Shown here piece after piece: positions 21,001-24,000 of a stretch of DNA of 64,000 nt; position 1 is the stretch's first letter, and every line of letters begins with the position of its first letter. The stretch lies in NCBI RefSeq assembly GCF_988243305.1, contig NZ_OZ547136.1, one strand, 5' to 3'. The position numbers were made by a program.

Positions 21001-24000
21001 ATCAGGTGTCGGTTCCGGCGTAGGTTCTGGGTCCGGCGTTGGCTCAGGCGTCGGCTCCGGGTTTGGTGTTGGATCAGGTTTCACTTCCGGCAAAGACCCT
21101 GTTCCAGAATCTACAGGCGGCGTATCGGAGGAAGATCCGGAGCCACCGCCATCACAACCGGCTAACAGGGTTGCGCTTAAAATAGCCGCTAAAAGCGATT
21201 TCTTATATTTAAATTTCTTATTCATTAATAACGCAAGTGACAAAATATAGTTAAAAAATTCGTAACTGGGGAAATAGTTTTATGTTTTAGCTTCTCTAGT
21301 AACTTCCTCCATTCTTAAGAAAACTGCATTATTGATAACGAAACAGGTGAAATTTATAAGAATATCCCCTATTCGATGTCAGACGGGGTATTTATAAAAT
21401 GATTCAACAAACAAAAAAGTAACAATTATTCACAATGTAACTATCCCAAGTTGTTGATAGTTTTAACGATTGCGATTGCAAAAGCAACAGATAGCACGGT
21501 GTTTGCTCATCAAGCGAACACAATTAATACAGACTTGTTTTGCGTGACAAAAAATAGATATTCTCACCCCCTTAATTATTTAGCGAGTTATCTGAACATG
21601 AAATATTATTTATGCATGGATAATAAACAGCGAAATAATTTTGCAATTATTTAGCCAGAATAATGAAACGAGAATAGAAAGAAGCCGGATGATATTAACG
21701 ATCATCCGGCATTATTGATTTACGAGACTAACATCCCAGTAAACACATACGCCTGCAACAGCGTGATAATGCCGATAACGCTGGCAAAAATCAGACTGTG
21801 CTTCACGGTGTAGCGGAACAGTTCAGATTCCCGGCCCACCATGCCCGTCGCGGCACAGGCCACGGCGATAGATTGCGGGGAGATCATCTTGCCAGTTACG
21901 CCGCCGCTGGTGTTTGCTGCCACCAGCAGAGTGTCAGAGACGTTGATTTGCTGCGCCGTGGTCGATTGCAGTGAACCAAACAGGGCGTTAGAGGAAGTGT
22001 CCGAGCCGGTAAGGAATACCCCCAGCCAGCCGAGGAATGGCGAAAAGAACGGGAACATCACGCCTGTACCTGCCAGTACCAGCGCCAGCGTGGTGGACAT
22101 ACCGGAATAGTTGGTGACGAAGGCGAACGCCAGCACCATGCCAATCGACAATATCGGCCACTTCAGACTAATTAGCGTTTCGGCAAAGACGCCAATCCCT
22201 TTCTTGATGCCCACGCCGAGGATGAAGATAGAGATAATCGCCGCAATAAAAATAGCGGTGCCGCCAGCCGAGAGAGGGTCGAATTTAAACACCGCATCCA
22301 TTGGCGTTGGTTGGGCGACAATGGGTGCCGCTTTCAACACTTGTTGATGCAAATGAGGGATCTGGAAATTAATCACCAGTGAATAAAACGCGCCGCCCGG
22401 AGCAAATAACGCTTTAAACGGCTTCATGGTCCAGATGGTGACCAGCACCGTTAAGATTAAAAACGGTGACCACGCACGAATGATTTGCCCCAGACTATAT
22501 TCTGAAGGCACGGGACCGCCAGAAGATGGTTTATTCACCACCATCGCACCTGCGGATTGTCCCATGCTGATTGCCGTTTCGGTATTTTTCGGCCGCCAGA
22601 CTTTAAGGAATAAAGCGAGTGAGACGATACTCACCAGCGCCGAAGTAATATCCGGCAGTTCCGGACCAATATAGTTAGAGGTAAAGAACTGCGTGACAGC
22701 GAAGCTTCCCCCAGCAACCAGCGCCGCTGGCCACGTCTCTTTCACCCCTTTCCAGCCGTCCATCATTGCTACCAGCCAGAACGGCACAAGAACCGACAGG
22801 AACGGTAACTGACGTCCCGCCATTGCGCCAATGTGGAACGGATCGATTCCCGTTACCTGACCGGCGACCAGAATCGGCACGCCCAACGCACCAAACGCCA
22901 CCGGCGCAGTGTTGGCAATCAGACACAGCCCCGCCGCGTATAACGGTTTGAAGCCCAGGCCCACCAGCAGCGCACCGGTAATCGCCACCGGCGCACCAAA
23001 GCCAGCCGCCCCTTCCAGCAGCGCGCCAAAGGAGAAACCAATCAGTAACACCTGCAAACGCTGATCGTCAGTGATGGAGATAACCGAGCTGCGGATAATA
23101 TCGAACTGACCGCTGGCAACGGTTAATTTATAGAGGAACACCGCCGCAACAATAATCCACGCAATAGGCCATAATCCATAAATAAAGCCATAGCCCGCAG
23201 CAGCAAATGCCATATCAATCGGCATTTTAAAGGCGAATATTGCAATCAGGATAGATAATATAAGGGTTATTGCTCCAGCGACATGTCCTTTCAGACGTAA
23301 TACCGCGAGTGCAACGAAGAAGAATATTATCGGGATCAGGGCGACCAGAGCGGATAGCCCCAGTCCTCCCATCGGCATATACATTTGGGTCCAGGTAACC
23401 ATATTGTTCAGTCTCTTATTATCTTTATATGCTTGATATACTTAAGGTTGTAATAAACAAAAGAGGACTGAACTGTAAAATATAGGCGTTATACTTTACA
23501 GCAACAGTACGCCGCTAACGCAATTGCTACCTCTGGCATAACAAGTATATCGGGTAAGGGTTTCTGTTCCGCACACGCAGGCGCAGAGTATCGTTAAGAT
23601 GTCCATATTGTTGTTTTAGGCCCGCTAGTAATGCGCTACGGGTATTTAATATTGTTAAACCCTGATAATCGCTCCGGTTATTTCCGGGATAAATGTACTA
23701 CCGCAGTTACTATCATAGCCCCGACAATAAAACTTGCCGGGGCTTTTTTGACGCTATTAATGACTTTCTTTTTCGCGTAAACGCCAGGCGTGTAATAACG
23801 GTTCGGTATAGCCGTTTGGCTGTTTCACGCCGAGGAAGATTAAATCGCTGGCAGCTTTAAAAGCACACGAGTTAGCGAAATTCCCCGCCATCGGACGATA
23901 AGCCGGATCGCCAGCGTTTTGCTGATCAACCACTTTCGCCATATTCTCCAGCGACGCCTGCACCTGTTCTTTGGTCAGAATACCGTGACGTAACCAGTTG

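Follow-up and report, generated by a model that had tools for sequence, protein, structure and literature searches.

Upstream of sslE, the contig analysed here carries several hundred base pairs of markedly AT-rich DNA, and the question is what this DNA does. We studied it within a stretch of 64,000 nt (contig NZ_OZ547136.1), in the following called the window. The gap between glcA and sslE (21226-21719) is very probably the known control region of sslE and the T2SS-beta genes, silenced by H-NS and activated by Fis. The respective control logic, i.e., H-NS/StpA silencing in the cold and Fis activation at 37 C, is already published, such that our finding re-identifies a known region. The new point beyond this regulation is the rare haplotype of the region found in the window.

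Position and composition of the gap

Both flanking genes are encoded on the minus strand, with the AT-rich gap between them. The glycolate permease gene glcA (21720-23402) is the final gene of the co-directional glc operon upstream of sslE; it is identified by its ORF and by how RefSeq annotates locus L001 (99.9% identical), whose GlcA accession is shared with K-12 and 536. The lipoprotein metalloprotease gene sslE (SslE/YghJ; 16672-21225; ORF and L001 annotation) is the first gene of its operon and is followed downstream, in the same direction, by the complete T2SS-beta genes pppA, gspS-beta and gspC-M (4744-16508; ORF map, L001 and UTI89 annotations, collinear alignment). A 751-nt query (21100-21850) matches E. 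coli chromosomes whose flanks are annotated as glcA and sslE. Under this match, the record of H18 (NZ_CP196239.1) lists a hypothetical protein.

The ORF prediction starts sslE at TTG 21243, while RefSeq uses ATG 21225 in the 99.9%-identical strain, which leads into MNKKFKYKKSLLAAILSATLLAGC with a lipobox present. Given the ATG at 21225, the non-coding gap comprises 21226-21719 (494 bp) instead of 21244-21719 (476 bp). An earlier note on this DNA had described about 475 bp of AT-rich, non-coding leader before sslE. The AT-richness stands and the length needs a minor correction, while the term leader fits only about 227 of the 494 nt, the remainder being glcA terminator and upstream regulatory DNA.

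The G+C content of the gap is 0.316 (31.6%), compared to a value of 0.519 when the window is taken as a whole. Among all 494-nt segments of the 64 kb, the one at 21190-21683 is the poorest in G+C (0.298), and 0.13% of these segments are equally low. That is, the AT content is far above average across a few hundred bp, as in H-NS-silenced promoters, and 21226-21719 (no strand assigned; delimited by composition and by homology to the annotated E. coli locus) is presumed to form an H-NS/StpA binding platform. Among eight orthologous alleles including that of E. albertii, G+C values of 0.30-0.33 are kept despite a sequence divergence of 15-30%. Within the same window, the gap yghO|FAAL (32384-32754) is just as AT-rich.

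The poly-A/T tracts named in the earlier note are present: with 12 tracts of at least 4 nt, the gap ranks among the highest 1% across the window. When its sequence is shuffled with dinucleotides preserved, 11.6 +/- 2.3 such tracts result, i.e., there is no enrichment over base composition, and the tracts are a product of the latter rather than an extra feature. For the H-NS nucleation consensus tCGATAAATT (PMC2094087), we count 15 sites with at least 7/10 matching positions, compared to 4.0 +/- 2.5 per 494 nt window-wide (top 0.3%) and to 11.9 +/- 3.4 expected from shuffles. The top match is a single site with 8/10 positions; measured against the dinucleotide expectation, the motif count gives no hint of a dedicated H-NS nucleation site in the gap. 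Repeats within the gap are restricted to short two-copy matches, e.g., 17-mers with TTTTGTCAC at a distance of 307 bp; in K-12 these matches are less pronounced, and they are probably due to chance.

Curvature is not a requirement for H-NS binding. In virF, the thermosensor is reportedly a defined intrinsic bend flanked by two H-NS sites. In contrast to virF, no exceptional bend is predicted in the window's allele. Curvature analysis, proposed in the earlier note as a check, turned out unremarkable for this allele under the wedge model: the mean is 19.8 deg compared to 18.4 deg for the window, the maximum is 40 deg, and 4.9% of the positions exceed the window's 95th percentile. The common alleles show a predicted bend of 52-72 deg about 120 nt upstream of the sslE ATG (wedge model). 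No AA/TT periodicity of 10-11 bp is found in the gap. The model gave the expected outcome for phased vs. unphased A-tracts; its parameters follow Bolshoy et al. 1991; the published analysis used BEND-IT.

Terminator, putative Fis sites and probable promoter

That the stop of glcA abuts a hairpin was confirmed. The hairpin begins 9 nt past the stop codon and is formed by a 10-bp stem with a 7-nt loop (21710-21684), followed by the U-rich tail UUCUUUCUAUUCUCGU (glcA-sense strand). Its energy of -16.7 kcal/mol (z = -5.1) is reached by 0/200 shuffles. With a G+C-rich hairpin and a U-rich tract past the stop, the element (21668-21710, minus strand) is an intrinsic, i.e., Rho-independent, glcA terminator. 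In the alignment with E. albertii, two stem pairs change to G-U on the minus strand; read on the opposite strand, these pairs would turn into A-C mismatches.

To place the Fis sites, G-N13-C sites were enumerated in UTI89, matched to the positions given in PMC5012682 and carried over to the window by alignment. The counterpart of site F1 is located at 21583-21597 (minus strand; centre at about -138), and that of region F2, which consists of three overlapping G-N13-C sites from about -42 to -67, at 21494-21519 (minus strand). The window's allele has a T at +4 of F1, and under the Fis rules a T at this position disfavours binding. F2 shows a single T-to-G change at a non-key position and sits inside the most conserved block of the gap (90-95% invariant in 8 Escherichia alleles). 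In UTI89, the one strain in which Fis-dependent activation via F2 was demonstrated, F2 is required for this activation and F1 is dispensable (PMC5012682).

Based on the geometry of F1 and F2, we infer the -35 hexamer TTGCTT at 21482-21487, the -10 hexamer TAAAAC at 21460-21465 with a 16-nt spacer, and the transcription start of the sslE operon at 21452 (+/- 2 nt; all on the minus strand). The numbering follows the 5'RACE-based one of UTI89, where the F1 centre at -138 and F2 at -41..-68 agree with one single start position. Position 21452 is also bracketed by the reporter-fragment primers 5570 and 5571. Neither hexamer varies among the 7 aligned E. coli alleles or in UTI89. Hexamers with a spacer in the range of 16-18 nt and G-N13-C sites just upstream of the -35, as known for Fis-activated sigma-70 promoters, are thus in place. 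A consensus sigma-70 scan of the gap finds 0 sites on both strands (2.6 +/- 1.7 in shuffles); it misses the mapped promoter because TTGCTT-16-TAAAAC matches only 7/12 consensus positions. A second candidate promoter, TTGCAA-16-TATCAA, which would move the start downstream by about 6 nt, was rejected due to its poorer fit to -138/-41..-68, and it may still provide a secondary start.

Untranslated leader and small ORFs

The inferred start defines an AT-rich 5' untranslated leader of 227 nt (21226-21452, minus strand). We find no Rfam family with E <= 1 in 20800-22200, the leader folds no better than its shuffles (z = +0.93), and its alignment fold has a covariation term of -0.03 with a compensatory change in 1/43 predicted pairs. 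These results lend no support to a structured cis-regulatory RNA leader (riboswitch, thermometer or attenuator). Nor does the leader show the C-over-G bias that is a sign of Rho-utilisation sites (C/G = 0.91).

A post-transcriptional role of the leader in addition to H-NS, e.g., via a helix that masks the ribosome binding site and opens at 37 C, was considered as well. An example is an 8-bp helix that AAUAAUGC (21333-21326) could form with GCGUUAUU (21234-21227) just upstream of the AUG. This helix appears in the consensus fold, where a one-sided change in two of its pairs leaves the pairing intact. Furthermore, sslE has no obvious Shine-Dalgarno sequence, and its expression is affected by TypA, a ribosome-associated GTPase, and by insertions in nusA (PMC5012682). 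Still, the sole compensatory change lies outside the helix, short helices arise easily by chance in AT-rich sequence, and the fold, covariation and Rfam results given above do not favour such regulation, which we therefore regard as unlikely.

Even less likely, to the point of being very improbable, is a hidden gene within the gap, i.e., a small protein or a small RNA. Candidates are provided by several ORFs of 30-67 aa, among them a plus-strand ORF of 67 aa (21451-21654), as well as by two short ORFs that are intact in 7/7 E. coli alleles: a sense-strand uORF of 10 codons (MEEVTREAKT, 21312-21280) and a TTG-started ORF of 18 codons (21425-21369). The 67-aa ORF is intact in 2/7 alleles, namely the window's allele and a near-identical relative only, and broken by frameshifts, stops or start loss in the other five, while the other ORFs of at least 31 aa are intact in 2-3/7 alleles. 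That is, the reading frames of these ORFs are not kept across diverged alleles as would be expected of small-protein genes. None of the four gap ORFs tested has a Pfam match. With regard to the uORF, its ATG is ATA in E. albertii, and its peptide varies at 5/10 residues among the alleles (three to five per allele). No feature is annotated between sslE and glcA in the RefSeq annotations inspected or under the intergenic hits, and the literature searched yielded nothing relevant on either a small protein encoded in the leader or a polymorphism of the promoter. The view that the small ORFs are artefacts of AT-richness is thus well borne out by the broken 67-aa frame and the lack of Pfam matches.

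Regulation of homologous alleles and the rare haplotype

Silencing of this control region by H-NS, as suggested in the earlier note, is supported by published tests on homologous alleles. Upon deletion of hns, the sslE transcript increases at 22 C about 3.5-fold in UTI89 and about 2.2-fold in EC958, and at 37 C about 7-fold in EC958, while the effect in UTI89 at 37 C is just 1.7-fold (Tan et al. 2016, PMC5012682). According to the account of Yang et al. 2007 (J Bacteriol 189:142) given in PMC5012682, a 14-gene operon is transcribed from a promoter upstream of sslE/yghJ; purified H-NS and StpA bind the sslE promoter region of ETEC and block open-complex formation; and repression by both proteins is greater at 22 C than at 37 C in H10407, for which derepression in hns mutants is published as well. 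The comparison with H-NS ChIP data points in the same direction: the K-12 yghJ/glcA gap is listed as the 374-bp 'promoter island' 3117080_374 (Panyukov & Ozoline 2013, PMC3661553, Table 1) and scored as H-NS-bound in all ChIP studies compiled there. Such islands are marked by an exceptional density of promoter-like sites across at least 300 bp and were defined by another algorithm (PlatProm) than the simple consensus scan, which found no sites in the window's gap.

We further compared the window's allele with the yghJ/sslE promoters of H10407, UTI89, EC958 and K-12. Locus and flanks are the same, the terminator is nearly identical, the G+C content is alike (0.316 vs. 0.30-0.32), and the core promoter is shared, with F2 one base off K-12 and a leader of 227 nt in both the window and UTI89. 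Differences are a 10-bp insertion after the terminator, the T at +4 of F1, a C-to-T change at about -5, two changes within the spacer and a leader bend that is predicted to be weaker. In total, 74-75 of 494 columns (15%) differ between the window's haplotype and the tested alleles. The rare haplotype would presumably behave like the published alleles.

The alternative of an ordinary intergenic spacer, whose AT-richness stems from terminator, promoter and relaxed constraint and where H-NS is insignificant in the window's allele, is improbable. It can draw on the tract and motif counts, which equal the expectation from composition, on the unexceptional predicted curvature, on the similarly AT-rich gap yghO|FAAL and on the small H-NS effect in UTI89 at 37 C. 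Set against this, H-NS binding follows AT content. The AT content of the window's gap reaches the same extreme as that of the H-NS-bound alleles and is held across 15-30% divergence, and publications on several diverged strains describe both H-NS binding and derepression.

In gene direction, the parts of the control region are arranged as follows. The terminator (21710-21668) is followed by an AT-rich upstream segment of about 215 bp, which contains the F1 counterpart, and by a conserved core of about 100 bp, in which F2 (21519-21494) lies beside the weak sigma-70 promoter TTGCTT-16-TAAAAC; from a probable start near 21452, the 227-nt AT-rich leader extends to the sslE ATG at 21225. By analogy to the homologous alleles, from which binding of H-NS/StpA, derepression in hns mutants, Fis activation and the 5'RACE numbering are taken, H-NS together with StpA would coat all of the AT-rich DNA to either side of the promoter. 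This coat would keep RNA polymerase from forming an open complex, with the greatest effect in the cold. In rich medium at 37 C, the weak promoter would fire with the help of Fis bound directly upstream of the -35. A similar arrangement is described for Shigella virF as cited in PMC5012682, i.e., AT-rich DNA around a weak promoter, repression by H-NS at low temperature and a positive effect of Fis at 37 C.

The way in which this operon is switched on matters for both pathogenesis and antigen expression, since SslE, a colonisation factor that degrades mucin, is considered as a vaccine candidate, and ETEC also uses T2SS-beta to export the heat-labile toxin. Strain-to-strain differences in SslE output are reported but unexplained (Tan et al. 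2016, PMC5012682), and the divergence of the regulatory DNA, which exceeds that of the flanking genes and is the highest of the segments compared, could bear on them. Between the window's gap and the common E. coli allele, which nearly all other strains have, identity amounts to about 85%, compared to 97-100% for the flanks, i.e., for glcA and for the 200 nt of sslE next to the gap. Full-length copies of the window's haplotype with at least 97% identity are present in 17/5,426 complete E. coli genomes; Z1323HEC0462 and ATCC BAA-2469 are examples of strains with this haplotype.

The E. albertii gap resembles the rare haplotype more than the common one, where the outgroup comparison refers to one species (besides E. 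albertii, the contig scan gave just Escherichia sp. E1V33 and a MAG fragment with contamination). The sslE control region of the window is a rare haplotype of outgroup-like character. It is conceivable, though rather doubtful, that it marks a replacement of the regulatory allele; the common allele could then be a derived form, either swept or fast-evolving. If so, the haplotype could alter the strength or the conditions of SslE and T2SS-beta production. Intergenic regions of E. coli are reportedly subject to horizontal regulatory switching (Oren et al. 2014, PNAS). Compared to such cases, the sslE haplotypes are still alignable homologues (85%) and not unrelated sequences. Shared with them are a promoter-bearing gap that is far more diverged than its flanking genes and the existence of mosaic recombinants, which for sslE exchange only the core of the promoter together with the initial 150 nt of the leader.

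Limits, composition and probable silencing of the glcA-sslE gap

The intergenic region studied here (the gap) lies in the E. coli chromosomal gene order glcDEFGBA - sslE - pppA - gspS-beta - gspC-M, which is entirely encoded on the minus strand. Among complete E. coli genomes, 4,367 of 5,426 match a 751-nt query spanning it (21100-21850), their flanks being annotated as glcA and sslE. The closest match, strain Z1323HEC0462 (99.9%), provides the full gene order and annotates the sslE start as the ATG at 21225; the start at 21243 given by the ORF tool is a TTG extension upstream of this ATG. 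The true gap thus covers 21226-21719 (494 bp), i.e., the earlier note was right about a non-coding gap, while its limits (21244-21719) slightly undercount it.

The marked AT-richness described in that note is evident: G+C is 0.316 in the gap vs. 0.519 in the whole window, 21190-21683 is the lowest-GC 494-nt stretch of the 64 kb (0.298), and just 0.13% of the window's 494-nt segments have equally low G+C. In all alleles examined, E. albertii included, gap G+C is held at 0.30-0.33. The poly-A/T tracts are present as well (12 of at least 4 nt; top 1% of the window) but follow from composition, since dinucleotide shuffles of the gap yield 11.6 +/- 2.3. Similarly, the gap contains 15 tCGATAAATT-like sites (at least 7/10; best single match 8/10) compared to 4.0 +/- 2.5 per 494 nt of the window (top 0.3%) and 11.9 +/- 3.4 in the shuffled gap.

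Curvature analysis, which had been proposed as a check, was done with our own wedge-model implementation (controls: phased A-tracts 80 deg, unphased 3 deg, random sequence 20 deg). It did not single out the window allele: the gap mean is 19.8 deg vs. a window mean of 18.4 deg (gap maximum 40 deg), and no AA/TT periodicity of 10-11 bp was found in the gap. The common alleles (the type of K-12, UTI89 and most strains) are predicted to bend by 52-72 deg at a position some 120 nt 5' of the ATG; in the window allele, this bend is weaker. Given that the motif count matches the shuffles and curvature is ordinary, AT content is the sole clear H-NS-attracting property of the window allele.

The reading of the gap as an H-NS-silenced control region is supported by, and was already established from, published experiments on homologous alleles. 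At 22 C, both UTI89 and EC958 have more sslE transcript once hns is deleted, and EC958 shows a strong increase at 37 C as well; Fis and TypA are positive regulators (Tan et al. 2016, PMC5012682). According to the summary of Yang et al. 2007 given there, the 14 genes form a single transcript, open-complex formation is blocked by H-NS and StpA bound to the promoter region, and the lower temperature (22 C vs. 37 C) brings stronger repression. Furthermore, yghJ (sslE) is among the H-NS-sensitive genes with multiple sequences, primary and secondary, that resemble the H-NS binding motif (Lang et al. 2007, PMC2094087). The comparison with ChIP data suggested in the earlier note also agrees: the K-12 yghJ/glcA gap, a 374-bp 'promoter island', is scored as H-NS-bound in all ChIP studies compiled, i.e., Grainger, Kahramanoglou and Oshima (Panyukov & Ozoline 2013, PMC3661553). 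In strain W, SslE secretion is confined to growth at 37 C in rich medium.

Predicted terminator, promoter and leader

The hairpin said to abut the glcA stop is real and strong. On the glcA-sense strand (21710-21684), it forms a 10-bp stem with a 7-nt loop 9 nt past the stop, followed by a U-rich tail (dG = -16.7 kcal/mol, z = -5.1). In the E. albertii alignment, two stem pairs change to G-U on this strand, where the other strand would have A-C. Since pairing is thereby kept, the hairpin works as RNA in the glcA direction and is the glc operon terminator, as judged from sequence.

The sslE start was mapped in UTI89 by 5'RACE. The respective reporter primers (PMC5012682) have their window counterparts in the terminator and at about 21421-21442, which places the promoter between both and implies a long leader. 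Of the UTI89 Fis sites, F2 (three overlapping sites, -41 to -68) is needed for activation by Fis, while F1 (centred at -138) is dispensable (PMC5012682). We enumerated all G-N13-C sites of the UTI89 gap that pass the Fis inclusion/exclusion rule. Apart from one site within the leader, those that pass are all in the upstream part: a single isolated site and three that overlap one another. Centring the isolated site at -138 places the overlapping three at -67 to -42, in agreement with the published range within one base. This geometry fixes the UTI89 start 227 nt upstream of the ATG, such that the -35 and -10 hexamers are TTGCTT and TAAAAC with a 16-nt spacer.

Transferred to the window by alignment (all minus strand), the predicted F1 and F2 counterparts are at 21597-21583 and 21519-21494, the inferred -35 and -10 hexamers at 21487-21482 and 21465-21460, and the start at about 21452, leaving a leader of 21452-21226 up to the annotated ATG. 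The predicted promoter matches the consensus at merely 7/12 positions, which accounts for both its Fis dependence and the lack of any hit in a consensus promoter scan of the gap region. The block 21460-21519 is the best conserved of the gap, with 90-95% of columns invariant among eight Escherichia alleles.

For the leader RNA, an Rfam search of the gap region matched no family, the fold is no better than that of shuffles (z = +0.93), and no covariation is found among eight alleles. On the minus strand, AAUAAUGC (21333-21326) can form an 8-bp helix with GCGUUAUU (21234-21227) immediately upstream of the sslE AUG, and pairing is kept despite two one-sided substitutions in other alleles. The helix could mask the ribosome-binding region, but is without statistical support and weak evidence in AT-rich sequence. 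The small ORFs are, as supposed earlier, artefacts by all indications: the 67-aa plus-strand ORF is intact in only 2/7 alleles and without Pfam match. A 10-codon sense uORF in the leader (MEEVTREAKT, 21312-21280, minus strand) is intact in 7/7 E. coli alleles and starts with ATA instead of ATG in E. albertii; only the GGAGG adjoining or overlapping it is conserved in both species.

A rare haplotype of the gap

The AT-rich, H-NS-silenced sslE control region is known already; the rare regulatory haplotype found in the window is a modest lead. The window gap is about 85% identical to the allele of K-12, 536, UTI89, HUSEC2011 and the majority of other strains; 74-75 alignment columns differ, a 10-bp indel among them. 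The flanks of the diverged segment (21246-21711) are 97-100% identical. Compared to K-12, sslE shows 2 differences in its 5'-terminal 200 nt next to the gap, and glcA differs at 25 per 1,000 nt. Across the 34 kb shared with UTI89, no other alignable intergenic region is as diverged as the gap (84.8% identity); the remaining gaps of more than 50 nt, one of which is equally AT-rich, reach 95-99.6%.

Full-length copies at 97% identity or more occur in only 17/5,426 genomes, and mosaics of about 91% in about a hundred. The mosaic of strain UID2309220031 is of window type only at 21300-21520, i.e., in the promoter core plus the initial ~150 nt of the leader, with common type on either side; thus, the two haplotypes recombine within the gap. 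Among the 75 columns differing between window and K-12, E. albertii has the window state at 40 and the K-12 state at 19 (binomial p = 0.009). Based on these counts, the rare haplotype looks nearer to the ancestral state, or derived from a lineage closer to E. albertii.

Further divergent or AT-rich regions of the window

The gap between yghO and the divergent fatty acyl-AMP ligase gene (32384-32754) has the second lowest G+C of the window (0.32). Being equally AT-rich, it is likely another H-NS target; its 95% identity to UTI89 sets it apart from the sslE gap. The third lowest-GC stretch (45623-46116; 0.33) lies at a gap between the minus-strand ORFs 44262-45761 and 46053-47915.

Compared to UTI89, sslE (16672-21225) is 86.8% identical, with 74.6% at third codon positions; together with gspI (8033-8404; third positions 77.4%) it is far more diverged than neighbouring genes (third positions 88-98%). 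The sslE divergence is patchy, with blocks of 66-88% against different strains. After the lipobox, an imperfect 12/30-nt tandem repeat (20975-21078) encodes a Gly/Ser-rich linker and shows a 6-nt length difference to K-12 and UTI89 near 20991. The E. coli sslE 5' end (95% identity) and leader sequence also occur on a 1-kb contig (JAIJJM010000973.1) of a MAG labelled Collinsella sp., which is almost certainly binning contamination. Finally, a 75-nt segment between glcC and yghO (31166-31240; G+C 0.61) is absent from UTI89 and may be an inserted REP-like element.
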